Shown: in pieces, positions 5,195 to 43,418 of the stretch
How the letters are laid out: every line of letters starts with the position of its first letter
Position numbering within the stretch: the stretch's first letter is position 1
Assembly (NCBI GenBank): GCA_021157525.1
Contig: JAGGWK010000060.1
Span: 11,293 to 75,292 of the forward strand
Direction of reading: 5' to 3'
Origin: Candidatus Cloacimonadota bacterium
GTDB taxonomy: Bacteria; Cloacimonadota; Cloacimonadia; Cloacimonadales; TCS61
Length of the DNA: 64,000 bases
The notes under the pieces: generated by a model
What the model saw: the letters and a program-made list of their open reading frames with translations, nothing else
The model's database searches: none
What the model was told of the DNA's origin: nothing
Program-made: the position numbers and the translations under genes

Positions 5195-6208
5195 ATGAGA
5201 TGGGAACATCCTTTATACCTGATTTTTCTGATAGCTATTCCACTCATGGGAGCTGTTGCTTCGGTTATCGCGCACCGACGCAAACAACGGATGAGCGCCT
5301 TTGCCGAAACCCGCTTTTATGATTTTTTCATGCAGGAATTTTCCGCTTTTCATTGGGGACTCAGAAACGTGGTCTTTTTCCTGGCTCTGGTGTTTTTGAT
5401 TATTGCCCTGGCCCAACCCCAATGGAATAAAGAAGTGCAGATCATGAAAAAGGAAGGCATCGACATCGTGGTTTGCGTGGACGTATCCAAAAGCATGGAT
5501 GCGCAAGACATCAAACCCAGCCGCATCGATCGCGCCAAAGACCAGATCAGCCGCTTCATTGATGGATTGCGGGGAGACCGGATCGCTATCGTGGCCTTTG
5601 CAGGACGCAGCTTCGTGCAGTGCCCTCTCACCGATGACTACGGCGCTGCCAAGCTTTTCCTCAGTTTACTGGACACCGAAACCGTAACATCCTACGGCAC
5701 GGATATCGGTGGCGCTCTGCGAACAGCGATGCCCCTATTTTCCGAAGCGGAAAAGCATAAGGTGATCATCGTGGTGAGTGATGGCGAAGATCTGGAGGAA
5801 AATGCTCTGAAAGTGACGGAAGAAAGCGTAAAACAGGGGGCTGTAATCTACACCCTGGGCGTAGGCACCCCTCAGGGTACCACCATCCCGATATTAGATA
5901 AACAAGGTAACACCGTCTATGCAAAAGACGATGATGGCAACATTGTATTCACCAAGCTGGATGTATCCACCCTCACTGATATCGCCCGCAAAGGGAACGG
6001 TCGATTCTACCCCATCACGCCACAGCAATCGGAGATTTTCGAAATCCTCAACACCATTAATCAGATAGAAAAGAAGAAATTCGACAGCAAAGAGTATCTG
6101 CGCTACAAAGAACAGTATGCCTGGTTCGCCGCTATCGCTTTGCTGATACTGTGCATCGAGTGGCTCATTGTTACCCGCCGCAAAACCACCTTGAGGAGAA
6201 CAGTATGA
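5195..6208 (+). CDS. batB: BatB (VWA domain membrane protein)
   Basis: 337 aa; TM + VWA (DIVVCVDVSKSM); paralog of BatA. Confidence 0.85.
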   Translation: MRWEHPLYLIFLIAIPLMGAVASVIAHRRKQRMSAFAETRFYDFFMQEFSAFHWGLRNVVFFLALVFLIIALAQPQWNKEVQIMKKEGIDIVVCVDVSKSMDAQDIKPSRIDRAKDQISRFIDGLRGDRIAIVAFAGRSFVQCPLTDDYGAAKLFLSLLDTETVTSYGTDIGGALRTAMPLFSEAEKHKVIIVVSDGEDLEENALKVTEESVKQGAVIYTLGVGTPQGTTIPILDKQGNTVYAKDDDGNIVFTKLDVSTLTDIARKGNGRFYPITPQQSEIFEILNTINQIEKKKFDSKEYLRYKEQYAWFAAIALLILCIEWLIVTRRKTTLRRTV

Positions 6209-6948
6209 GACGCACAATTCTGGGGCTTATCTGCATCCTGCCTGCCTTACTGATGGCACAACCTATGCAATATGGCAAGGCTCTGAATAATCTCAAAGGC
6301 ATCCGGCACTACAAAAAAGGAGAGCTGGAGCCGGCGGAAAAAAACTTCAGTGAAAACGCCCTCACTCATCCCGATGACGGACGGCTGCACTTCAACCTGG
6401 GAAACGCCTATTACAAAGAGGGAAAATACGAACAAGCCGAAGCGGAATATCAGTTGGCCGCAAAAGACAAAAAATTCTCGGCGCAATCACAAATTCAGCA
6501 CAACTTGGGAAACGTAAAATATCAGCAGCAGGATTTCAAAACCGCCGTTGAACATTATCGCAATGCCCTCATCGCCGATCCAAACAACCGAGAAGCCCGT
6601 TACAACTATGAATTGGCAGCAAAAAACTTGCAGCGTCAGCAAAACCAGCAGCAACAGCAAAACGATGATAACAAAAATAAAGACGACAAGGAGAAACAAA
6701 AGCAACAGCAGCAATCTGACGACCAGCAAAAACAGGATAAAGAAAAACAGCAGAAACAGGAACAACAGAAGCAGGAACAACAACAGAAACAGGATGCTCA
6801 ACAAAAGCAGCAAAAACTGAAAAAAGACGAAGAGAAAAAAGATGCTGAGCAATTGCTGGAAGCTCTCTTGGCCAAAGAAAAAGAAGAGATGAAAGAAGAA
6901 AAGCGAAAGTTGAACGTTGACAAATCGAAATCCGGTAAATATTGGTAA
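6205..6948 (+). CDS. batC: BatC-like TPR protein with Q/K-rich low-complexity C-terminal tail
   Basis: signal peptide, TPR repeats (GNAYYKEGKYEQA..), then about 100 aa of Q/K/D/E low-complexity; start ATG 6205 after GAGGAG. Confidence 0.75.
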   Translation: MRRTILGLICILPALLMAQPMQYGKALNNLKGIRHYKKGELEPAEKNFSENALTHPDDGRLHFNLGNAYYKEGKYEQAEAEYQLAAKDKKFSAQSQIQHNLGNVKYQQQDFKTAVEHYRNALIADPNNREARYNYELAAKNLQRQQNQQQQQNDDNKNKDDKEKQKQQQQSDDQQKQDKEKQQKQEQQKQEQQQKQDAQQKQQKLKKDEEKKDAEQLLEALLAKEKEEMKEEKRKLNVDKSKSGKYW

Positions 6949-6977
6949 ATTCCTATAGAACGTGGATAGAGGAAATC

Positions 6978-8765
6978 ATGAAGCAACGAATCATCATTCT
7001 TTGGATACTGCTCCTTGCCTGCTCAGTAGCCTTTGGCGCCGAGCTGGAGGTACAGTCATACGTCGATCGCACCACTGTGGGTTTAGATGATTATCTGAAA
7101 TTCACCGTAGAAGTTACAGGATCTAAAGCGAACAAAGCTTCCATTCCCAGCCTCAGCGGTCTGAAGGGATTTCGGAATCTTGGCGCCTCCACATCGTCAT
7201 CATCCAGCTACTCGGTGGTAAATGGCAAAATGACATCCAGTGTTTCCGCCAGTACCACCTTCACATTACAACCTCTGGCTACGGGAGAGCAGATTTTACC
7301 GCCGGTGAGTGTGCAATTCAAAGGCAAAACCTACACCACCAAACCAATTCGCATCAAGGTAAAGGAAGGGAGCACAGAACCGGCTCCACCGGTTTCTCAG
7401 CAGATGCAGCAAAGGGGAAGCACCCATCAATCCTCGGATAAGTTAGCAGATAATATGTTCATTATCGCCGATGTTTCACAAAAATCGGTGTATAAATCTC
7501 AGCCCATCACGGTAGATTTTTACCTCTATACCAAGTATGATGTGCGCAATCTTTCTTTTGGTGAAGAGTCTTCTTACAGCGGTTTTTGGAAGGAAATCAC
7601 CTATACTCCCGACCATATTAATTTCCGCCGCACCACCTATGATGGCCAACTTTTCAATGTGATGCGGCTGCGCAGTATTACCCTGCTTCCCACCCGCAGT
7701 GGAGAACTATCCATTCCTCCTCTGGAGATGCTGATAGATGTAACCGTGCCAGCCCGCAGTTTCTTTGATTTTGGCTCCACCAAACGTTACACCATCCGCA
7801 GTAAAAAAATTCCTATAAAAGTGCGGGACATCCCTCTGGAAGGAAGACCGGAAAGCTACAGCGGCGCAGTGGGTTCGTTCACCATAAAAAGTGAAATCAG
7901 TGATACTCAAGTGAAATCCGGGGAATCCCTTACCTATACCATCACCATATCGGGTAGTGGAAATTTCAGCAATATCGAGCCGCCGGCTATGCCGGATGTT
8001 AATCATCTGCGCTTTGTTGAGCCGGAAATAACCAACGACGTTTCCAGCGGAGGCGTGAAGGGTAGCAAAGTCATCCGTTCTCTGGTGATTCCGGAAGAGC
8101 AGGGAACCTACACCATCCCAGCCCTGAGTTTTGCCTATTTCGATCCTCAGCAAAAAGCCTATAAAGTTCTCAAAACTGCTACTCACACCATCAATGTGGA
8201 CAAGGGTGAAACCCTCTACATCCCATCAGCCGGAGCTCAAAACGTGGTTCACATAGAAGGCGCAGACATCGGTTTTATTCAGATTCCCGACACGGTAACG
8301 TCTTTTCATCTTTACTTTGATGCAGCAGGATTCTGGCTCATCTGGCTTATTTTGGCTCTGTGCATTCCGGCAGCTGTGATCTTTGCAAAAGAGCAGGAAA
8401 AATTGCGTGGAAACCTGCATTATCAGCGGAAGCGCCTGGCTACACGCATCCTGAAGAAATACCTGAGACAGGCCACCGAATACGCACAAAACAAAGACAG
8501 AGCCTTTTACACCGCCGCTCAAACCGGACTTCTTACCTACCTTGCCGATGTGTTACACATAGCCCGCGGCAGTACCGCAGACGCAGTTTTGCTTGAGCTG
8601 AAAAGCCGTATCGATTCAGCAACGCTGTATCAGCGCACCAGTAGCATGATAGAGCGTTGCAACCAGGCGCGCTTCATGCCGGGAGGCTTTGCCAGCGAAA
8701 ACATCCCTCGGGATTTTGAATTGCTGAAGGAAATCATGGCCGACATCGCCAAACTGAAATTGTGA
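6978..8765 (+). CDS. batD: BatD (oxygen-tolerance protein)
   Basis: about 595 aa, N-terminal signal, C-terminal TM; BatD-like architecture and operon position. Confidence 0.75.
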   Translation: MKQRIIILWILLLACSVAFGAELEVQSYVDRTTVGLDDYLKFTVEVTGSKANKASIPSLSGLKGFRNLGASTSSSSSYSVVNGKMTSSVSASTTFTLQPLATGEQILPPVSVQFKGKTYTTKPIRIKVKEGSTEPAPPVSQQMQQRGSTHQSSDKLADNMFIIADVSQKSVYKSQPITVDFYLYTKYDVRNLSFGEESSYSGFWKEITYTPDHINFRRTTYDGQLFNVMRLRSITLLPTRSGELSIPPLEMLIDVTVPARSFFDFGSTKRYTIRSKKIPIKVRDIPLEGRPESYSGAVGSFTIKSEISDTQVKSGESLTYTITISGSGNFSNIEPPAMPDVNHLRFVEPEITNDVSSGGVKGSKVIRSLVIPEEQGTYTIPALSFAYFDPQQKAYKVLKTATHTINVDKGETLYIPSAGAQNVVHIEGADIGFIQIPDTVTSFHLYFDAAGFWLIWLILALCIPAAVIFAKEQEKLRGNLHYQRKRLATRILKKYLRQATEYAQNKDRAFYTAAQTGLLTYLADVLHIARGSTADAVLLELKSRIDSATLYQRTSSMIERCNQARFMPGGFASENIPRDFELLKEIMADIAKLKL

Positions 8766-12166: not shown

Positions 12167-13153
12167 TTATTGCATTTTATTCTTTTCAATCTCTCGCACA
12201 ATTTCCAGTGCGATTTTCAGCGCCCGTGTACCTGCACGGCCATCCACCACCGGATTCAAGCCAGCTTCCACCGCATGAACAAAGGATTCCAGCTCTGTGG
12301 TCAGAGCATCTTTGGTGCGGTGAGAAGCATCCACCTCCCGGGTATCAACCACCATTGAGGGATCAATATTGTCATATTTGCCCATCAGAATTTTGGGCAT
12401 CACCTTATAAAGCTGTTTTGATTTTGTAATATAGGTCGCCTTTTTGTTTTGAAAATCGATGGAGAAATAAGCATCTTTCTGGAAAATCCGTAGTTTGCGG
12501 GAACGCTTCATGGAGATGCGGCTGGCCGTAACATTACACACAGCGCCGTTTTCAAATTCGATACGAGCGTTGGCGATGTCGATGCTTTTGGTAAGCACAC
12601 CAGCACCGCTGGCACTAATGTGTTTTACCTTGCTGGGAATGAAGGCCAAAAAGAGGTCGATGTCATGAATCATGAGCTCCAGCACCACAGGAATATCGGT
12701 GCCCCGTGGCGTAAATGGCGCAATGCGGTGGCATTCGGCGAAGATGGGATCTTTGATATCCTTCTCGATTTCCATGATGGTGGGATTAAACCGCTCGATG
12801 TGCCCCACCTGAATTTTCAGCCCCTTTTCCTCTGCCAAATCACACAGCTCTTCCGCCTGCCACAGATGCTCGGTTATAGGTTTTTCAATAAACACATGCT
12901 TCCCCTGCTCCAGCGCTTGCCGGGCCAGATCATAGTGAGAAAGAGTAGTAACTACGATGGCTAACGCGTCAACCGCATCCAGTAATGACTGAAAATCCGG
13001 GAATATGCGCGCATCGATGCGTTCACCAATTTCGCGAGCACGCTTGGGATTTTTGTCGTACAATCCCATGAATTCACAAACCGAGCTGTTCCTTAAAATC
13101 CGCGCATGGTTCTGACCAAACTGTCCAACCCCTGCGATGCCTACCTTGAGCAT
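12167..13153 (-). CDS. Gfo/Idh/MocA family oxidoreductase
   Basis: [13 protein letters not shown] Rossmann N-terminus, EKP motif; start trimmed to ATG 13153 preceded by GAAGGAG. Confidence 0.8.
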
Positions 13154-13312
13154 GTGCTCTCCTTCGTTTTTTATCGGTGATAAACATGATTTCGCCGATG
13201 TGCTGTCAAGAAAAGAAACCCCATACAGGGCGAGAGTTGATGGCAATAAACTTTGCTTGACAGCTGGATGGGCTAGATTGTTTGCAAGAATGATAAAGAC
13301 AAGGATGGAAAC

Positions 13313-35136: not shown

Positions 35137-35994
35137 ATGGAAAGATCCGCACCAACACAGAATCGGCTTTCAGGCATCGTGATTGCACTGATTATCTCGC
35201 TGTTGCTGCACCTATTGGTCATTGTGGTGATCTCCTTTTTGCAAACCGATTTCCTTCATCATTTTGTGCAGGATGTACCATTGGTACCGCCATCCCGGGA
35301 AAAACCGCTGGTTTTCGAGTTGGTAGAAACCCCGGATGTTCCCTCTTCACCACCAGAGCAACCAACCGATCTGGCATCAGATACCGCCACTTCAGCCCGG
35401 GATGCGGTGGACAAACAGCTTCCCATCAGTGATACACCTTATGCCGAAGGAACTGCCAGCACCAGAGATGTCACAGCTCCCGCAAAGCCTGAGAACCAGC
35501 CCCGGGCAGAGCCGTCCAGCGCAACTGCTGCCGTTGAAGGACAGGGGAAAGAAACCGCCACTCCGGCAGAACAGCAGCCGGTAGTAATTCCTCAGATGCT
35601 GGCATCGAATCAGCAGAGTTTTAGAAATCTGCGCTCTGAGGTTGCATCCAGAGGCGGGATGATGTTGAACACCTATCAGTGGAAATATGCACCATACCTG
35701 CTCAAGCTCAAACGGAGAATTTCCGGTAACCTGAGACCGCCCTACGCCTTTACCCGACTGGGCATCATCGGCGGTCAAAACCTTATCCGCTTCCGCATCA
35801 ACCCCGATGGAGCTATTGTGAATGTGACGCTTTTGTGGAGCAATTCCCACGAATCCCTGGAGCAGAGCAGCATAGCAGCCATAGAAAAGTCCCATCCATT
35901 TTTGCCGCTTCCTGCGGGATTTCCCAAAGAATACCTGGAGATAACGGCCCTCTTTACGTACAATAACAAACCACCAACAGAAGGTAGAAAATGA
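35137..35994 (+). CDS. tonB: energy transducer TonB
   Basis: N-terminal TM anchor, Pro/Glu-rich linker, C-terminal TonB domain (YAPYLLKLKRRISGNL...GAIVNVTL). Confidence 0.8.
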   Translation: MERSAPTQNRLSGIVIALIISLLLHLLVIVVISFLQTDFLHHFVQDVPLVPPSREKPLVFELVETPDVPSSPPEQPTDLASDTATSARDAVDKQLPISDTPYAEGTASTRDVTAPAKPENQPRAEPSSATAAVEGQGKETATPAEQQPVVIPQMLASNQQSFRNLRSEVASRGGMMLNTYQWKYAPYLLKLKRRISGNLRPPYAFTRLGIIGGQNLIRFRINPDGAIVNVTLLWSNSHESLEQSSIAAIEKSHPFLPLPAGFPKEYLEITALFTYNNKPPTEGRK

Positions 35995-36614
35995 AAGAAT
36001 TTATCGCATTACTCCAGCAGGGCGGCATCATTATGTATCCGCTACTGCTCTGCTCGGTGATCTCCCTGGCCATCGTTATCGAGCGCTGTTTTACATTACG
36101 GCACAAGCACATAATCGTTCCGGAGATCGAGAAGGTTGTACGCTCTATTCGCACAGCCGAAGACATCCCGTTGGCACTGAAGGTCTGTAGTCAGAACAAA
36201 GGGCCCTTTGCCGCTATTATGCGGGTAGGACTGGAGAATCACACCCTCCCCGCTGCGATTCTCAAAGAGGAAATCACCAACCACGGACGCCAGCAGGTAC
36301 GGGTGCTGGAGCGGGGATTGGTGGTATTGGAAACCGTTGCTGCGGTGAGTCCCATCCTGGGCTTGCTGGGAACGGTGGTAGGGATGATCAAAGTGTTTAA
36401 AGTCATCTCCTTGCAAGGTGTGGGAGAAGCATCCGCTCTATCGGGGGGTATTTCCGAAGCACTCATCACCACAGCAGCAGGTTTGACAGTGGCCATCCCG
36501 ACCGTGATATTTTATAATTTTCTCTCCCAGAAAGCCGAGAACCTGATAATGGACATTGAGGATAATGCCAACAATCTGGTGCGGACGATTCGAGAGTTTT
36601 CCAAGGATGCATGA
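35991..36614 (+). CDS. exbB: MotA/TolQ/ExbB proton channel protein
   Basis: 207 aa, 3 TM, conserved C-terminal TM pair; ATGA overlap with tonB. Confidence 0.85.
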   Translation: MKEFIALLQQGGIIMYPLLLCSVISLAIVIERCFTLRHKHIIVPEIEKVVRSIRTAEDIPLALKVCSQNKGPFAAIMRVGLENHTLPAAILKEEITNHGRQQVRVLERGLVVLETVAAVSPILGLLGTVVGMIKVFKVISLQGVGEASALSGGISEALITTAAGLTVAIPTVIFYNFLSQKAENLIMDIEDNANNLVRTIREFSKDA

Positions 36615-37012
36615 TGAATTTTCGTGAAAAGAAGAGACGTAACGTCACTATCAATATCACTTCCCTCATCGACGTGGTATTGCTGTTGCTCATCTTTTTC
36701 ATGCTTACCACCACCTTTTCCGAGCAGCCGGGGATGAAGCTGGAATTGCCGGAAGCCAAGAGTTTTGGAACCCAGCGATTTTCTCAGTTGGAAGTTTCCA
36801 TCGGTGCTGATGGCACTCTCGTCCTCAATGGCAACAAGATTGCCACCGAGGATTTGAAGCAGGCAATCACCGACCTGGTTCCTCAGATCGAAGAAAAAAC
36901 CATCATCCTGCGGGCTGATAAAGCGGTGCAACACGGTGTGGTGGTGATGGTGATGGATGTGGCCCGCAGTGCAGGAATAGAAAAGGTGGTAATCGCAGCA
37001 AAACCCCGATAA
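36611..37012 (+). CDS. exbD: biopolymer transport protein ExbD/TolR
   Basis: 133 aa; single N-terminal TM (INITSLIDVVLLLLIFFM) + periplasmic domain; overlap with exbB. Confidence 0.85.
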   Translation: MMNFREKKRRNVTINITSLIDVVLLLLIFFMLTTTFSEQPGMKLELPEAKSFGTQRFSQLEVSIGADGTLVLNGNKIATEDLKQAITDLVPQIEEKTIILRADKAVQHGVVVMVMDVARSAGIEKVVIAAKPR

Positions 37013-37312: not shown

Positions 37313-38290
37313 CTATTTAAATTCCCAGACGAAGGGATCCGGGCTATTGAATACAAAACGTTTCAGATAGGAAATCATGGTGTGGAGATCATAACCTGCA
37401 GGCACCACAAAGTAATCGTATTTGGCGACGAGAGCGGCAAATTCGGCATTTTCCATGAGGGCTGCATCGACGAAATAGATACCATGGCCAGGAAGGCTTA
37501 AGTCGGATGCATCCGTTGGCTCCACCTGACGATACAACACAACGTCCTGCTCTTTCAGCAGCTCTTCTTTGAGATGAGAAAAGTATTGGCCGTTGGATGG
37601 AGTAGCCAACACCACCAGTTGCTGCCCTGGTCGGAAGACATCAATGAGACGCTGTTGTTCCTCTGGAGCACTGGTGTCGGAAAGACCTGCCAGACCCCGC
37701 ACACCGCTCACGATAAACCATAGGGCAATAAGCACCGAGGCGATGCGTCCGATGAGTTTCAGCTCTTTTACTTTACTGAAAAAACCCACAAATCCCATGG
37801 GAACGAGGTATAATGTGGTGCCCAGAAAAAAGCCGAAAAAGAGGGTTGCGCCGTTTATGGGCCCCCCGAGATTCACCGCTTTTGAGAGAGCAATAAGAAA
37901 GGATGGACAGAAATTTACTCCCGTGAGCACCCCCAGCAAAAAAGCGCTTTTGGTGATGTTTGCCATCTTCGGAATGTGACATTTTTTTGCTTTTTGATGG
38001 GATCGTACTGCGGTGAGCAGCAGATACAATGAGAGTAAAATATAGGCAATGGATGTGAAAAACGTTCGGTTGATTTCGGTGATATTTTTGCCCAGATAGC
38101 CAGCGACAGCACCAAACGCCAAGTAGGTAAAGAAGCGGCCCAGAGAAATTTCCATTACCGCAAGGAAGGTTTTACCCACTTTTTTGTCATCGCTCAGGAG
38201 ATAGGGCAGGTAAATGGGTGAGCAGGTTGCCAGACACACCACCCCCGTGGCCAGTCCTAAACCCCAGCCTTCGATCAAACTTTGTATCAT
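37313..38290 (-). CDS. DsbD/CcdA-like (DsbD_2-type) polytopic membrane protein with cysteine motifs in TM helices and C-terminal soluble domain
   Basis: 325 aa; TM1 LATCSPIYLPYL resembles CcdA SPCxLPxxP, TM4 GVNFCPSFL resembles the second CcdA Cys motif; about 120-aa C-terminal hydrophilic domain; last gene of ferredoxin operon. Confidence 0.45.
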   Translation of the reverse strand: MIQSLIEGWGLGLATGVVCLATCSPIYLPYLLSDDKKVGKTFLAVMEISLGRFFTYLAFGAVAGYLGKNITEINRTFFTSIAYILLSLYLLLTAVRSHQKAKKCHIPKMANITKSAFLLGVLTGVNFCPSFLIALSKAVNLGGPINGATLFFGFFLGTTLYLVPMGFVGFFSKVKELKLIGRIASVLIALWFIVSGVRGLAGLSDTSAPEEQQRLIDVFRPGQQLVVLATPSNGQYFSHLKEELLKEQDVVLYRQVEPTDASDLSLPGHGIYFVDAALMENAEFAALVAKYDYFVVPAGYDLHTMISYLKRFVFNSPDPFVWEFK

Positions 38291-38299
38291 AGTTGTTCC

Positions 38300-39427
38300 T
38301 TAATATCTGTAAGCAAGGCTGATGCCGTGGGTAAGCCGATCTTTCACAGTATCCCGCAACAGCACGTCGTAGCGATAGCCGATGCGCAGGGAATCATGCA
38401 GCAAAAAGCCCCCCAGTTCCCCGCTGATACCCATATCGTTCACCGACACATTGCCCAGATAATAGTTGTATTCTGCAAAGAAAACAAGCTGCCACAGGTT
38501 GTACTGCATGTTTGCCTTGAGAAGGGTTTCTTCATCGTAAAAATAGTGTTTGGCAGCCAGCCGGATACGATTGATCCGATTGCCCTCTGTGCTGATGGTG
38601 CGCTGAACGATGGATTCCCCAAAGCTTTTTCCCAGCAGCATTTCGTTGTTTTCGGTATCGTACCAGTTTTGGATATCCAGTTTTTGCACCAGCATCCAGT
38701 CTGGATGCAGCTTTGTGCTGAAGCGGGTAGTATAATGCACAAAATAAGGCACGTCGTCATAACGATCCGATTGTCCCAGGATGAGCTGCTGCTGCCAGAT
38801 GTGAGGACGTCCAAAGTAGTGCATCGTCTGTATCCCGGCACCGGCGGTATAGTAGTTAAAAACGTCTTCCTCATTCAAATCGTCGAAATGCTCAAGGGCG
38901 ATTACCGGCATCCAGGTATCGCTTTGCATCCAGGTAAGAGTCACATTGTTGCGGGTATCGAACTCGGTAATATCTTCGTCGCCGGAGTAATCGCGGATAT
39001 TGTAGCGCAGGTTTGCATCCATCAGAAGGTTCCCCACCTGATAGTGAATATTGGCGCCGAGGCCCCAGCCATTTTCCAGCAGGTATTCGCCATTAACACC
39101 GCCGACGTGGGATGGGAAATTATCTGCCGGAGAGAGTTGAACGCTGCCGAAAAATTGAACCATCCCGCCGGATAATGTACGGGTGAGGGATAGTTTGTTA
39201 CGCAGATAGTTGCGTAGATAGGTCTCTTCCAGAGTCTCTGTTTCTTCGCTGAATTTGGCAAAGGTGATGTTATCGATCTGCCATTGGCCAAATTTTTGCG
39301 TGATATAGGAGGTCATCCGAGAAGAAAAGCCCTCTTGGTTATCGGAGACAACGGAGACGGAAATCTGCTGAAGGGCCGAGAGGGAAAGCATCCCAAAAAG
39401 AATACTAAAAAGAAAGGACTGGCGCAT
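38300..39427 (-). CDS. outer-membrane beta-barrel protein
   Basis: start at ATG 39427 (AAGGAG RBS) gives signal peptide MRQSFLFSILFGMLSLSALQ; alternating amphipathic strands; C-terminal GISLAYRY aromatic terminus typical of OMPs. Confidence 0.6.
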   Translation of the reverse strand: MRQSFLFSILFGMLSLSALQQISVSVVSDNQEGFSSRMTSYITQKFGQWQIDNITFAKFSEETETLEETYLRNYLRNKLSLTRTLSGGMVQFFGSVQLSPADNFPSHVGGVNGEYLLENGWGLGANIHYQVGNLLMDANLRYNIRDYSGDEDITEFDTRNNVTLTWMQSDTWMPVIALEHFDDLNEEDVFNYYTAGAGIQTMHYFGRPHIWQQQLILGQSDRYDDVPYFVHYTTRFSTKLHPDWMLVQKLDIQNWYDTENNEMLLGKSFGESIVQRTISTEGNRINRIRLAAKHYFYDEETLLKANMQYNLWQLVFFAEYNYYLGNVSVNDMGISGELGGFLLHDSLRIGYRYDVLLRDTVKDRLTHGISLAYRY

Positions 39428-39437
39428 TGGGGCTCCT

Positions 39438-39683
39438 TTAGTGGATGGCGTTTTCCGGACAGACGTCGGCGCACTTGCCACAGGATACGCATTTGCTTGA
39501 GATAATAACGGGTTTATCGCCGTCGTAATCGATGGCGTTGTGGGGGCATACGTCGTAGCATTGGCCGCAGGCAACGCAGGATGTTTCATCTATTTCGTAG
39601 CTGGCGCCGGTGAGCTTTTTGCAGCTAATGAAGAAGAGCCCTAACATCAACAGTACCAGCAGGATGGGTAAAATTCGTTTCAT
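39438..39683 (-). CDS. exported 2x[4Fe-4S] ferredoxin-like protein (signal peptide/lipoprotein-like)
   Basis: 81 aa from ATG 39683 (GGAG RBS); MKRILPILLVLLMLGLFFISC then CVACGQCYDVCP and CVSCGKCADVCP motifs. Confidence 0.65.
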   Translation of the reverse strand: MKRILPILLVLLMLGLFFISCKKLTGASYEIDETSCVACGQCYDVCPHNAIDYDGDKPVIISSKCVSCGKCADVCPENAIH

Positions 39684-39691
39684 GGATACTC

Positions 39692-39925
39692 CTACTTTAT
39701 GGCGTTGTATGTACAGGTGGTGATGCACATTTTGCAGTCGATGCAGACATCGGTATCGATCACCGCTTTGCCATTTTGCAGACTGATAGCCTGGACGGGA
39801 CAGTAATTGACACAATCGCCACAGCCGACACAGCTTTGTTTGGAAACCTCCGGCTTGCTCTGAACCATGGCAAACAGCACGATGGTGGCCAGCAACAATA
39901 TCGCTATCACTACGTTCTTTTTCAT
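39692..39925 (-). CDS. exported 2x[4Fe-4S] ferredoxin-like protein (signal peptide)
   Basis: 77 aa; MKKNVVIAILLLATIVLFAMVQS then CVGCGDCVNYCP and CIDCKMCITTC motifs. Confidence 0.65.
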   Translation of the reverse strand: MKKNVVIAILLLATIVLFAMVQSKPEVSKQSCVGCGDCVNYCPVQAISLQNGKAVIDTDVCIDCKMCITTCTYNAIK

Positions 39926-39938
39926 CTTATATCCTTTA

Positions 39939-42416
39939 TTAATATTCTACTACTTTCAGTTTTATGGCATTTCGCGGACACCAGCTCACGCAATCACCGC
40001 AGGCTACACAAGCATCGGGATCGATGGTGGCATAGGAGCCGTGGTCAGTGATGGCATCTTCAGGACAGTGACTTACACAGTGGCCGCAGCCATTACAGGG
40101 GGGACGGTTTATCTGGTACACCAGTTTTCCGGCCGGAGAATTTGAGATTTCCGACGTATTCCCATTGTCGTCGGTGGTACGGATGGCGAAGTAGATAACT
40201 TCGCCAGAGTTCAGGCCATTCACGTCGCAGGTTTGTGATGATCCGCCAGCCAGTGGAGCCGGGGGATTGCTGAAGATATTGGCATCATCCCAGTTTGCAT
40301 CGGTGATGGGTTCATCCCAGTACCGGATGTCGTAAATCAGGGCTGTGCCGGTGGTTCCATCATCGCCGGGTGCCGTCCAGCTGATGCGGATAGTGCTGGC
40401 ATTGATTGCCAAACCGGCGACGACAGCCAAATCTGAGATGGTGGCCGGTGGCGTGGTATCTTCGGTAAGCTGGGCGATGGCAATGTTCGAGATGGCCGCC
40501 GCATTGTTATTTTCGTCATAGGCCTTGATGGCAAAATAGTAGTCCATTCCCATGGAGAGACCGGTTACCTGGTAGGTTTCGGCAGAGCCGGATGGAGCCG
40601 GAGCAGGTAGATTGGGCAACAGGTCGGCAGTTTCCCAGTTTGCCTCGGTAATCAGTGCGTTGGATGAGCGAATCTGGTAATGATCGGCAAGGCCGTCCAA
40701 TCCGTCATCTCCCACAGCGCTCCAGCTGAGGGTAATAAAAGAGTCACCTGATTCTGCCGCCAGATCGCCGATAGTGGCGGGTGGTGTAGTATCCTCCAGC
40801 AAGGTGGCAGAGGCATTGTTTGATGCTTCGGAGGTATTTTGAGAATCGTCGGTAGCTCTGATGGCAAAGTAGTACTGGATGCCAGGTTGTGGCACATCGG
40901 TAAGATAGCTTTGCACCGTGCCGGCCACTTGGGGTGCGGGTGGGTTTGGTAATGTGGTGGCATCCTGCCAGTTTGCAGTGGTAATCTGGTTTTCCGAGAT
41001 TTTTATCTCGTAGGAAACCGCCGTTCCTTCATCGCCGTCATCACCGGGAGCTGTCCAATTCAGAGTCATATCGTTCTGGGATGCCGTTACCGCCAGATCA
41101 CTGATAACAGCCGGAGGAACGGTATCGGGGATTTCGGTAGTTTCGCCGGATGGCACGTTGCTCAGGGACGATGCGTTCAGGGCGTCATCCAGTGCGATGA
41201 TGGCAAAATAGTAGGTAGTAAGGGGTTGCAATCCTTCTATCAAAAGTGCTTCGGTAGTGCCGGCTGTCTGAGGTACCATGTTTTGGGGGTAGGCTTCCAG
41301 TGCAGCCCAGTTGTCTGGTGTGATGACCTCGGTATCCACTTTGATGATGTAGGCCGATGCGGTTCCGATATTCTGGTCGTCACCCACAGCGGTCCAGTTC
41401 AGCAGGATGCTGTTCACCGATAGCGAGGCAACAGCCAGGTCGTCAATCGGTGCCGGCGCCATGATATCCCCGATGATCTGAGCCTGTACAACATTGGAGA
41501 TGGCGGCGTAATTGAGGGCATCATCGTAGGCGCGGATGGCAAAATAGTAGTTTTGCTGCAAAGGCAGATCGCTGATGATGAGGGTTTCGGCATCTCCTGC
41601 AGCAGCGGGAACCAGAGACTGGCTGTAGGTGGATGCATCCGGCCAATTGTCTGAAGTGATTTCCTGGGTGCTGTAGCGAATATCATAGCCGGCGGCAAGG
41701 CCTTCCATGGCATCGTCACCTACCGCTGTCCATCCCAGAGTGATGGTGGCTTCGGCAGAAGTTGCCGTAAGGTCTGTGATCTCTGCCGGAGCTGTGGCAT
41801 CGATGATCTCTCCAGCCACCAGGACCTGGCACACCGAGGTGCCGCTGGAGTGGTTCACCTCGTCGAAGGCTTCCAGTTCCACTGATATCTGGGCATTTTG
41901 GGGAAGATCCCGAATAATCCAGTTTTCTTCAAACCCGGCAGGAGAAGGTAGCGGAAGGATAAAATTGTAGGCAATGGGATTGTTCAACGTGTCCCGCAAT
42001 GTAAGGCCATATCGGAAGGAGTTGCCAGATGTTCCGTCATCTCCGGTAGCCACAAACTGTATCTGCACCACGCCGATGGAATCTGAAACGACGGAAAAAG
42101 AATCGATGGCGGCAGGAGCAACGACATCCGGGGTGGTGGTAAAGGCGTCTTCCGGACACTGAAATTGGTCAACACAGCGCATGCACTGTACGCATGCATC
42201 CTGATCGATATAAACGGTAAAGGTGCGGGGATCTTTTTTTATGGCGTCATAGGGACAGGAAAAGTCATCCAGACATTCGTAGCAACCCACGCATCGGGAG
42301 AACTCTACCCGAACCGGTTGTGAATCCGGCCCGACTTTCCGGGCATCATCACTACAGCTGATAACAGTAAAGAAAACAATGACTATCGCTACAACTAACA
42401 AAAAACTCTTATTCAT
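39939..42416 (-). CDS. large lipoprotein: N-terminal ferredoxin-like domain, six FN3-like repeats, C-terminal 2x[4Fe-4S] ferredoxin domain
   Basis: 825 aa from ATG 42416 (AGAGGA RBS); lipobox FTVISC; N-term CVGCYECLDDFSCP + CVQCMRCVDQFQCP; six about 105-aa repeats with WTAxGDDG...YYFAI; C-term CNGCGHCVSHCP + CVACGDCVSWCP. Confidence 0.7.
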   Translation of the reverse strand: MNKSFLLVVAIVIVFFTVISCSDDARKVGPDSQPVRVEFSRCVGCYECLDDFSCPYDAIKKDPRTFTVYIDQDACVQCMRCVDQFQCPEDAFTTTPDVVAPAAIDSFSVVSDSIGVVQIQFVATGDDGTSGNSFRYGLTLRDTLNNPIAYNFILPLPSPAGFEENWIIRDLPQNAQISVELEAFDEVNHSSGTSVCQVLVAGEIIDATAPAEITDLTATSAEATITLGWTAVGDDAMEGLAAGYDIRYSTQEITSDNWPDASTYSQSLVPAAAGDAETLIISDLPLQQNYYFAIRAYDDALNYAAISNVVQAQIIGDIMAPAPIDDLAVASLSVNSILLNWTAVGDDQNIGTASAYIIKVDTEVITPDNWAALEAYPQNMVPQTAGTTEALLIEGLQPLTTYYFAIIALDDALNASSLSNVPSGETTEIPDTVPPAVISDLAVTASQNDMTLNWTAPGDDGDEGTAVSYEIKISENQITTANWQDATTLPNPPAPQVAGTVQSYLTDVPQPGIQYYFAIRATDDSQNTSEASNNASATLLEDTTPPATIGDLAAESGDSFITLSWSAVGDDGLDGLADHYQIRSSNALITEANWETADLLPNLPAPAPSGSAETYQVTGLSMGMDYYFAIKAYDENNNAAAISNIAIAQLTEDTTPPATISDLAVVAGLAINASTIRISWTAPGDDGTTGTALIYDIRYWDEPITDANWDDANIFSNPPAPLAGGSSQTCDVNGLNSGEVIYFAIRTTDDNGNTSEISNSPAGKLVYQINRPPCNGCGHCVSHCPEDAITDHGSYATIDPDACVACGDCVSWCPRNAIKLKVVEY

Positions 42417-42770
42417 ACACCATCCTCTTTTTGCTATCAAACCAACATTCAGGTAACCAGAGAGGTGTCAAATGCAAAATTTCCGGTAAATCCGGAATAC
42501 ATACTTATGCAAGATGCCTGGAGAGGGGAACAAAGTATTTTCGTAAAAAATCTTAGATCCGGATAAAGAGTGTATTATTCACGCCACTGCTTTGTATTCA
42601 CCCGAATCCCGCTTCCAGAGCAGAGATCAATTATTTCTTGAAACGTTAGGAAGAGGTTTTGGACAAAACATAGCCTCCATTGGTAGCCCGTCCAGATCAT
42701 CCAGCCAGAGGCGATATCATGCTATTTAAGTAGATATTAACACCAGAATCCCCTTTTAGCTATCCAGAAG

Positions 42771-43418
42771 CTACATCATGCGCACATTAGATGTAATCAA
42801 TTGTTGCAGTTCGTTGATAGATTTTGACACTGCATGTCCGATGAGATTCATGCGGGAAATCTGATAAATCCGCTCATATGCCTTCTTCTGCTCTTCCCGG
42901 GTAAATACCTGGTCAACCAGGTTGCAGCTATTAATCAGGGACACCAGCACGATATCCCGGGGCTGGGGAATATCATCTGACAGCACCAAAGCCCGGATGC
43001 GGGTTTTCACTTCCACCTCTTCCCGATCATCTATCACGGGGTAACGGCGTTGGTTGAAGACCCAGAGGATTTTGTGTTCTTCTTTCTTCAGGATGCCTTT
43101 GGCGATCAGCTTATCCAGCATCAGTTCCCGGAGGTTTTCTATGCGGTTACGAATTTCCCACACCCAAAAAATCGAGCTCTTGTGGTCGGGGACTTCGGCA
43201 ATCATACCCAGAACACAGTCAAAGAGCTCATCGCCGGTGGGATCGCTGTTTATCAGAATGAGGTTTTCCAAGTCGGTATCGATGCGGTTCATCAGAGCCA
43301 GATCCATCAATATCGCGCCAGCCAGAGCATATTCAAAGGAAACCAGGGACATATTGATAAAGGTTCCTTTTTGGTCATCTAATGCCAGCAGCACCAGTTC
43401 TTCACCGAACGTAATCAT
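42771..43418 (-). CDS. GPP34/GOLPH3 family protein
   Basis: 215 aa; N-terminal FGEELVLLALDDQKG matches GPP34 family signature. Confidence 0.6.
   Translation of the reverse strand: MITFGEELVLLALDDQKGTFINMSLVSFEYALAGAILMDLALMNRIDTDLENLILINSDPTGDELFDCVLGMIAEVPDHKSSIFWVWEIRNRIENLRELMLDKLIAKGILKKEEHKILWVFNQRRYPVIDDREEVEVKTRIRALVLSDDIPQPRDIVLVSLINSCNLVDQVFTREEQKKAYERIYQISRMNLIGHAVSKSINELQQLITSNVRMM

Follow-up and report, generated by a model that had tools for sequence, protein, structure and literature searches.

Ferredoxin-type [4Fe-4S] proteins act outside the cytoplasmic membrane in the NapG/NapH and NapH-like extracytosolic systems. Modules recognised as carrying electrons across the membrane in such redox systems include NapH-like and DsbD proteins (PMC8238504). 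In the porin-cytochrome conduits (MtrCAB, PioAB and the Geobacter Pcc), periplasmic redox proteins are combined with an outer-membrane beta-barrel. These are the nearest counterparts of an operon in the window, our term for the 64,000 nucleotides of a Candidatus Cloacimonadota contig (JAGGWK010000060.1) analysed here; its first gene encodes a predicted lipoprotein with a ferredoxin-like domain at each end and six fibronectin type III (FN3) units between them (the FN3-ferredoxin). By analogy, the FN3-ferredoxin system would work most like one or the other of these, yet it lacks the defining features of both. It is a real, conserved and undescribed variant of the known extracytoplasmic redox modules; a literature search that took in papers on Cloacimonadota and on methanogenic communities returned no description of the protein family or of the operon.

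A Shine-Dalgarno sequence, GAGGA, stands ahead of the ATG at which the FN3-ferredoxin gene starts, and an alternative in-frame TTG at 42440, 8 codons upstream, would lengthen the protein by eight residues. The 825-residue product and the four genes downstream are called identically in public assemblies with identical contig sequence. From the N to the C terminus, translation and Pfam matches resolve a leader, a variant ferredoxin domain, six FN3 units and a canonical ferredoxin domain (Table 1).

Table 1. Parts of the FN3-ferredoxin gene and the four genes that follow it in the operon (window coordinates)
Feature	Position	Strand	Description
FN3-ferredoxin lipoprotein coding sequence	39939..42416	(-)	825 aa plus stop; open reading frame translation, Pfam fn3 and Fer4 matches
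Sec-type signal peptide with lipobox	42354..42416	(-)	aa 1-21; VIS-C21, then SDD
N-terminal variant 2x[4Fe-4S]-type ferredoxin domain	42129..42311	(-)	aa 36-96; two CxxCxxCx5CP motifs
FN3 unit R1	41802..42128	(-)	aa 97-205; divergent, family-specific
FN3 unit R2	41469..41801	(-)	aa 206-316; repeat alignment, Pfam fn3
FN3 unit R3	41127..41468	(-)	aa 317-430; repeat alignment
FN3 unit R4	40794..41126	(-)	aa 431-541; repeat alignment
FN3 unit R5	40461..40793	(-)	aa 542-652; best Pfam fn3 stretch 555-636
FN3 unit R6	40122..40460	(-)	aa 653-765; repeat alignment
C-terminal canonical 2x[4Fe-4S] ferredoxin domain	39942..40121	(-)	aa 766-825; conserved ...VVEY end
Small exported dicluster ferredoxin A	39692..39925	(-)	77 aa; signal peptide without lipobox; Pfam Fer4 families
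Small lipoprotein dicluster ferredoxin B	39438..39683	(-)	81 aa; leader ...FFIS-C-KK; Pfam Fer4 66.6 bits
Probable outer-membrane beta-barrel	38300..39427	(-)	375 aa from MRQSF...; signal peptide; ends ...LAYRY
DsbD_2-family membrane protein, six transmembrane segments	37313..38290	(-)	325 aa; C-terminal domain of about 125 aa without Cys

The C-terminal domain carries two canonical CxxCxxCxxxCP motifs (C774-x2-C-x2-C-x3-C784-P, residues 774-785, and C803-x2-C-x2-C-x3-C813-P, residues 803-814). Over residues 769-820 it matches Fer4_6 (57.4 bits, cut-off 25), Fer4_7 (51 bits, cut-off 27), Fer4 (48.4 bits, cut-off 21.1) and Fer4_21 (47.4 bits, cut-off 35), and all eight of its cysteines are invariant in 27 aligned homologues. 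The spacing before the last cysteine of the second motif varies by lineage between one, two and three residues, with x3 in the protein described here and x1 (CGDCSCP) or x2 (CGDCLPCP) in many lineages; it is unusual for the fourth ligand to be allowed several positions. Beyond the last cysteine, the tail is exactly 12 residues long in 81 of 103 family members, and 82 of the 103 end in tyrosine. The tail follows the pattern ...L-x-V-V-x-Y (39942..39980, residues 814-825). This strict C-terminal aromatic resembles the beta-signal of outer-membrane proteins and, on that likeness, could belong to a docking strand.

The N-terminal domain departs from the canonical spacing. Both of its motifs have five residues before the fourth cysteine (C42-x2-C45-x2-C48-x5-C54-P, residues 42-55, and C75-x2-C78-x2-C81-x5-C87-P, residues 75-88), and the Pfam Fer4 models that score above cut-off in the 825-residue protein match its C-terminal domain only, the N-terminal domain giving only a sub-threshold match to Fer4_4 (18.5 bits, cut-off 24). 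All eight cysteines are invariant in 36 aligned homologues, as is a phenylalanine (F23 of the domain alignment) two residues before the fourth cysteine of the first motif. Homology to ferredoxins is evident at the profile level: the N-terminal profile aligns with that of the protein's own C-terminal domain at 98.4% probability (E 1e-14, hhalign), and among Protein Data Bank (PDB) entries it matches RnfB (E 1.8e-11), FwdF (6e-11) and also MvhB, in the range of E 1e-10 to 1e-11. A two-residue gap falls before the fourth cysteine in both motifs of the hhalign alignment, and the alignments to the PDB polyferredoxins show the same gap. One of five AlphaFold2 (AF2) models of the domain is confident (predicted local distance difference test, pLDDT, 84.6), with elements in the order beta-alpha-beta-beta-alpha-beta, a (beta-alpha-beta)2 fold for which Foldseek returns the dicluster ferredoxins PscB, AprB, Fd I and clostridial ferredoxin at template-modelling scores of 0.6-0.65. 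Because hhalign, the PDB profile matches and the modelled fold agree, the x5 spacing is a symmetric two-residue insertion in an otherwise standard dicluster fold, and it is large enough to drop the domain below the Pfam Fer4 thresholds.

The closest relatives of both end domains, in sequence and in fold, are cytoplasmic polyferredoxins and ferredoxins (RnfB, FwdF, MvhB and the clostridial 2x[4Fe-4S] ferredoxin). Unlike the FN3-ferredoxin, these are cytoplasmic, have no leaders and keep the CxxCxxCx3CP spacing; their domains abut, with clusters within tunnelling distance, whereas here six FN3 domains intervene. An earlier, sequence-only reading of the window had described a lipoprotein with ferredoxin-like domains at both ends, canonical motifs in the C-terminal domain and the x5 variant in both N-terminal clusters, all of which agrees with what we find. 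It had named two observations that would count against it, a fold that does not bind cubane clusters and homologues lacking the cysteines; the predicted fold is of the cubane type and the cysteines are kept, and the variant domain is a true ferredoxin homologue that scores below the cut-offs of the Fer4 families.

The six FN3-like units occupy residues 97-765, and the best match to the fibronectin type III family (PF00041) reaches 97 bits against a cut-off of 25. The repeat alignment bears out a count of one divergent and five related units, R1 being 22-26% identical to the others and R2 to R6 37-50% identical among themselves, and the FN3 consensus proposed earlier fits R2 to R6. Other parts of the sequence-only reading need correction. 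Units put at about 105 residues measure 109-114, and a DNA period put at about 300 bp measures 327-342 nt and spans 40122..42128. The potential for recombinational length variation read from that periodicity also finds no footing: Tandem Repeats Finder reports no array in the gene, recurring patches of DNA are only 27-39 nt long (60-80% identity, spaced 333-345 nt), and the longest exact word shared between units is 17 nt. With units only 47-57% identical in codon-aligned DNA, the FN3 repeats offer no present-day recombination substrate, and we dropped the DNA-level tandem repeat as a candidate for one.

Stalk length does vary across the family. Among 103 complete proteins, the number of FN3 units is 3 (1 protein), 4 (34), 5 (21), 6 (33), 7 (2) or 8 (12), but within three clusters at >=90% identity every full-length member is equal in length, and the shorter members read in these clusters (five, from two of the three) are fragments. 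With 3-8 units family-wide and constant length inside clusters, stalk length differs between lineages and not between strains, within the available data.

The interval 40001..42000 has a G+C content of 0.544, against about 0.48, and a GC skew of +0.145. Horizontal transfer was considered as its source and rejected, as the bump and the Ala/Gly/Asp-rich FN3 repeats of the (-) strand occupy exactly the same stretch; it is a compositional effect of these repeats and not evidence of foreign DNA.

An FN3 domain is about 3.5 nm long and binds no cofactor, and electron tunnelling in proteins is limited to about 1.4 nm. The six-unit stalk, in which only two stray cysteines occur, spans roughly 20 nm, and because this far exceeds the tunnelling limit, electrons cannot travel along it. 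The sequence-only reading had proposed two redox centres held at a fixed distance on a rigid spacer, as a molecular ruler, or conduction along that spacer, as a wire. Its premises are real: ferredoxins stand at both ends, and Pfam and the repeat alignment confirm a bead-like spacer composed of FN3 domains. The wire, however, would need cofactor-binding residues that the FN3 units do not have, and a fixed ruler is at odds with a copy number of 3-8 among complete homologues and with variants that have no distal ferredoxin, so that the ruler and wire together retain hardly any probability. The distal ferredoxin is best seen as a tethered head, since the stalk cannot conduct.

The family was delimited in three ways. 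Among 5.8 billion proteins searched, about 70 have the same architecture, with about 100 architecture-sharing homologues overall; those with names come from metagenome-assembled genomes of Cloacimonadota, and their annotations say no more than 'ferredoxin', '4Fe-4S binding protein' or 'FN3 domain-containing protein'. With residues 1-205 as the query, an exhaustive HMMER search gave roughly 35-40 family clusters at 50% identity, whose members align to query residues 1-203, the remaining matches being giant FN3 proteins that align in the FN3 part alone. Finally, a degenerate DNA pattern of the N-terminal domain gave 86 matches, from which motif filtering removed about 40 chance matches in unrelated taxa, leaving the gene in about 46 GTDB species genomes. 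All of these are labelled Cloacimonadota except five (one contig labelled Delongbacteria, two labelled 'uncultured bacterium', and two short ones from Armatimonadota and Thermoplasmata bins), and the last two we take to be mis-binned. The family is confined almost wholly to Cloacimonadota.

Conservation is concentrated at the ends of the protein. The two end domains are 83% and 92% identical to those of the closest relative, compared with 71% for the whole protein, and all 16 cluster cysteines are invariant across the family (36 N-terminal and 27 C-terminal domains aligned), which suggests that both end domains bind [4Fe-4S] clusters. This pattern bears on the idea of an adhesin or structural fibril at the cell surface, in which the FN3 array is the functional part (in adhesion, spacing or capsule anchoring) and the ends are non-redox caps stabilised by metal or disulfides. 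FN3 arrays of the same repeat type are abundant in giant surface proteins, their number varies here as it does in adhesins, and such a role would leave no Fe-S loading after Sec export to explain. We nevertheless consider it improbable, given that the best-conserved parts are the end domains with their 16 invariant cysteines, that other exported ferredoxins are always encoded beside the gene, and that variants retain the N-terminal ferredoxin after most of the stalk is lost.

The leader (MNKSFLLVVAIVIVFFTVIS-C21-SDD) is lipobox-like, and pattern inspection finds the charged n-region, hydrophobic core and lipobox cysteine of a lipoprotein (MNK-SFLLVVAIVIVFFTVIS-C21). The cysteine is present in all 84 distinct family leaders, in some of which the residue at -1 is atypical (Y, Q, H or F), so the lipoprotein assignment made earlier is borne out. 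A short n-region rich in K/R and a hydrophobic core precede the cysteine, whose position is fixed; the residues that follow it are [ST]-D-[DTSN], with a near-invariant aspartate at +3, and in 71 of the 84 the first cluster cysteine lies 21 residues beyond the lipobox cysteine.

A twin-arginine motif (S/T-R-R-x-F-L-K) is missing from the leader of the 825-residue protein, and RR occurs in only 2 of the 84 family leaders, which by sequence are of the Sec or lipoprotein type and not of the twin-arginine translocation (Tat) type. To our knowledge, every well-studied periplasmic iron-sulfur (Fe-S) protein uses Tat. This general rule, together with the two RR-containing leaders, favours a scheme in which the protein acquires its clusters in the cytoplasm, folds and then leaves through Tat in spite of an atypical leader, or in which an N-terminal anchor leaves the domains in the cytoplasm. 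Both versions are very improbable in view of the 82 leaders without RR and of the K/R-rich n-region, hydrophobic core and fixed cysteine, and a cytoplasmic topology would also be at odds with the typically extracytoplasmic location of FN3 arrays.

The residues after the lipidated cysteine also bear on where the protein resides. In Bacteroidota, a lipoprotein export signal consists of K-(D/E)2, Q-A-(D/E)2 or an acidic run directly after that cysteine (PMC5080379, PMC6222051). The C-S-D-D of the FN3-ferredoxin is acidic in the same way, yet it and the family-wide [ST]-D-[DTSN] lie off the published consensus of a pathway known from Bacteroidota. The wider likeness is to the SusD/SusC and BtuG/BtuB pairs of that phylum, in which an acidic post-Cys lipoprotein is co-encoded with an outer-membrane barrel, and Cloacimonadota belong to the same FCB group. 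Beyond the residues themselves, the difference is that the barrel encoded here is not a TonB-dependent transporter; the export pathway in Cloacimonadota is putative. Exposure of the FN3-ferredoxin on the outer surface is, from these leaders, a reasonable inference.

Most of the functional information lies in the operon, which the sequence-only reading had missed. The FN3-ferredoxin gene is the first of five, with gaps of 8-13 nt before the four downstream genes; ferredoxin A starts 13 nt past the FN3-ferredoxin stop. Its place as next gene is kept in related loci, as is the place of ferredoxin B, which has DK, KK or EK after the lipobox cysteine in 36 homologues. Post-Cys residues therefore differ within the operon (C-[DKE]-K in ferredoxin B versus C-[ST]-D-[DTSN] in the FN3-ferredoxin). 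The order FN3-ferredoxin, ferredoxin of about 80 residues, lipoprotein ferredoxin of about 81-100 residues, barrel and DsbD_2 protein recurs in about 46 species-level loci and holds in essentially every related locus that is long enough, with a barrel-like gene in at least 30 loci and the DsbD_2 gene last in at least 18. A terminator-like site lies 3' of the operon at 37104-37090. Current annotations give the operon proteins no name beyond 'ferredoxin', 'FN3 domain protein' or 'hypothetical'.

Immediately upstream of the operon, about 15 related loci carry a gene for a membrane Fe-S protein resembling NapH/MauN (TIGR02163, E 9e-19), a likeness to the NapG/NapH systems, and about 8 carry one for a secreted four-cluster polyferredoxin. 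In a few others, a secreted domain-plus-ferredoxin protein is encoded upstream of the FN3-ferredoxin gene. In two such loci (L027, 128..619, and L088, 1943..2443), the secreted protein fuses an unannotated N-terminal domain of about 100 residues to a dicluster ferredoxin and has a weak match to the EFR1-family ferredoxins (60 bits, cut-off 75).

The third operon protein after the FN3-ferredoxin matches no Pfam or NCBIfam model. It has a signal peptide and no transmembrane helix, its hydrophobicity shows a strong period of 2, and its C-terminal residue is of the F/Y/W type. AF2 gives an all-beta model of about 19 strands at low confidence (pLDDT 42); the Foldseek matches to this model are almost all outer-membrane barrels, with template-modelling scores of at most 0.39, and the family profile finds a weak match to the KdgM porin among PDB sequences (E 0.033). 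Homologue searches returned only 2 proteins from the single sequence and 6 from a 15-sequence profile, resulting in a shallow AF2 alignment and a poor model. The protein is probably an outer-membrane barrel, on evidence of moderate strength.

The last gene encodes a member of the DsbD/CcdA superfamily (PF13386, 80 bits against a cut-off of 24.9). Four of its cysteines are invariant: C19 and C23 in the first transmembrane segment (CLxTC[ST]PIYLPY), C104 in a loop and C128 in the fourth (NFCP), such that a cysteine stands next to a proline in both segments. The family profile found nothing useful among PDB sequences (spurious OSCA matches only), and by the positive-inside rule the Cys-free C-terminal domain would face the periplasm. 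The counterpart is the CcdA/DsbD relay of apocytochrome c maturation, which has the same Cys-Pro motifs in transmembrane segments 1 and 4, is encoded with exported proteins and serves substrates whose cysteines must stay reduced for cofactor uptake. The match here, however, is to Pfam DsbD_2 and not DsbD_TM; the extra CxxxC and the Cys-free C-terminal domain set the protein apart, and it has no periplasmic thioredoxin-like partner here, its substrate and chemistry being putative.

Outside the operon, its upstream neighbour (42771..43418, (-)) is a homologue of GPP34 (Golgi phosphoprotein 3, PF05719; E 1.8e-46), a family named after a eukaryotic Golgi protein and found here in a Cloacimonadota genome. 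On the other side, genes for TonB (285 aa), ExbB (207 aa) and ExbD (133 aa) converge on the operon's 3' end (35137..37012, (+)). The same arrangement is found in an identical public contig and is missing beside the operon in two related loci, L001 and L002; not being conserved in these, the link is probably coincidental. In L002, from one complete Cloacimonadales genome, extra operon neighbours (5513..7179 and 12919..13266) comprise a secreted DUF1573-rhodanese protein, a divergent NapH-like (Fer4_5) gene and, just 3' of the DsbD_2 gene, a leaderless WCGPC thioredoxin. Far from the operon, a 53-codon open frame (6639..6797, (-)) with the run CFCCCSCFCCSC is probably a chance open reading frame in low-complexity sequence.

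The reading we favour, at a little under an even chance, is a haem-free, extracytoplasmic Fe-S electron-transfer chain in which the distal ferredoxin is held out on a stalk. Between them, three exported proteins of the window operon carry eight predicted [4Fe-4S] sites, and the operon adds a probable outer-membrane and an inner-membrane component. In this chain, the apoproteins would cross the inner membrane unfolded via Sec, the DsbD_2 protein would play the part that CcdA has for apocytochromes by keeping their 32 motif cysteines reduced, and the [4Fe-4S] clusters would be acquired outside the cytoplasm in a sulfidic, anoxic habitat. The small ferredoxins could then relay electrons across the periplasm, with the barrel serving as an outer-membrane passage or docking site. 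The membrane-proximal variant ferredoxin, 21 residues from the lipidated cysteine, would be the entry point; the non-conducting FN3 stalk would hold the distal ferredoxin off the anchor as a tethered redox head, which may reach past a capsule or S-layer to an external partner. The analysis establishes the architecture, the invariant cysteines, the ferredoxin homology and fold, the Sec-type leaders, the conserved operon and the variation in FN3 number; from these features we infer that clusters are bound and are assembled outside the cytoplasm, that the protein sits at the outer surface, and in which direction electrons flow and where they end up.

The same components can be read as a system for the capture and import or sequestration of iron, sulfide or Fe-S. 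Exported apo-ferredoxin cages would bind Fe/S or another thiophilic metal from sulfidic surroundings, the stalked lipoprotein would fish at the surface, and uptake through the two membranes would run by way of the barrel and a DsbD_2-type permease. If export is by Sec, the cysteine cages meet their ligand only outside the cytoplasm; a barrel and a polytopic inner-membrane protein look like an uptake pair, the DsbD_2 protein, from a superfamily that also holds metal permeases, has the extra invariant CxxxC and the invariant loop cysteine, and in the window genes for TonB, ExbB and ExbD point towards the end of the operon. This reading is weakened by the absence of the TonB cluster from L001 and L002 and by a barrel that is too small for a TonB-dependent transporter and has no recognisable plug. 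The NapH-like proteins and secreted polyferredoxins of relatives point instead to electron transfer, and the retained CP motif and the paired pseudo-symmetric motifs are features of electron carriers. On balance, metal capture is unlikely, although it has more to recommend it than an adhesin.

Several points weigh against the Fe-S electron-transfer chain. Its weakest step is cluster loading after Sec export: we know of no Sec-exported Fe-S protein and of no machinery for Fe-S assembly outside the cytoplasm. The thiol-reductant relay is suggested by the two transmembrane Cys-Pro motifs of the DsbD_2 protein only, and the DsbD_2 superfamily also holds metal permeases; a thioredoxin partner adjoins the DsbD_2 gene in L002 and in no other related locus, and was set aside. 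The barrel model has a pLDDT of 42, and at 375 residues the protein is much smaller than the redox-sheathing barrels of the MtrB type. The window operon includes neither a NapH-like nor a polyferredoxin gene, and the 64 kb contain no other open reading frame with a Fer4 motif. A ferredoxin at both ends is accounted for only by assuming that the stalk is flexible or that the two have separate partners, and a few complete variants keep the leader, the N-terminal ferredoxin and one or two FN3 units with no C-terminal ferredoxin. The short variants are 200-314 residues long (L081, 3077..4003; P0141, P0147, P0188 and P0193), and that of L081 lies in the same operon context.

Measured against the described systems, the FN3-ferredoxin operon differs from NapG/NapH in several respects. 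NapG is a Tat substrate, whereas the FN3-ferredoxin leaders are of the Sec or lipoprotein type, and the operon encodes several separate exported ferredoxins, a probable outer-membrane barrel and an FN3 stalk. The window holds no NapH-like gene and no Tat leader, and no gene for NapA or another terminal reductase was seen in the window, L001 or L002. With the porin-cytochrome conduits, the operon shares predicted periplasmic redox proteins, a probable outer-membrane barrel and possibly an outward-facing redox lipoprotein, but no CxxCH haem motif was found on reading the translations of the five operon proteins by eye. The predicted cofactors here are Fe-S clusters, the barrel has about 375 residues and 19 predicted strands as opposed to about 700 residues and 26 strands, and the putative surface component places non-conducting FN3 domains between its redox domains.

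Read conservatively, the result is a phylum-wide, tightly conserved operon of five to six genes that has stood under uninformative annotations. If the exported ferredoxins carry clusters, Fe-S proteins could mature after Sec export, contradicting the working rule that periplasmic ones depend on Tat, and electron transfer in the periplasm or outside the cell could do with neither haem nor flavin. In anaerobic digesters, the uncultured Cloacimonadota are key syntrophs for which pili alone have prompted the proposal of direct interspecies electron transfer (PMC13082233, PMC7382037), and the word 'cytochrome' is missing from the text of the first of these papers; because such transfer has already been suggested, a candidate envelope conduit would be directly testable. 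More tentatively, and with a probability below that of the general reading, Cloacimonadota may possess a previously unrecognised class of trans-envelope conduit built wholly of Sec-exported [4Fe-4S] ferredoxin modules and not of multihaem cytochromes or flavins. Its clusters would be assembled outside the cytoplasm, with the DsbD_2 protein keeping the cysteines reduced, and its terminal ferredoxin, borne on a lineage-specific FN3 stalk of 10-30 nm, would pass low-potential electrons to syntrophic partners (e.g., methanogens) or to extracellular acceptors. Cluster-bearing exported ferredoxins would offer a concrete, testable molecular route for electron export by Cloacimonadota.

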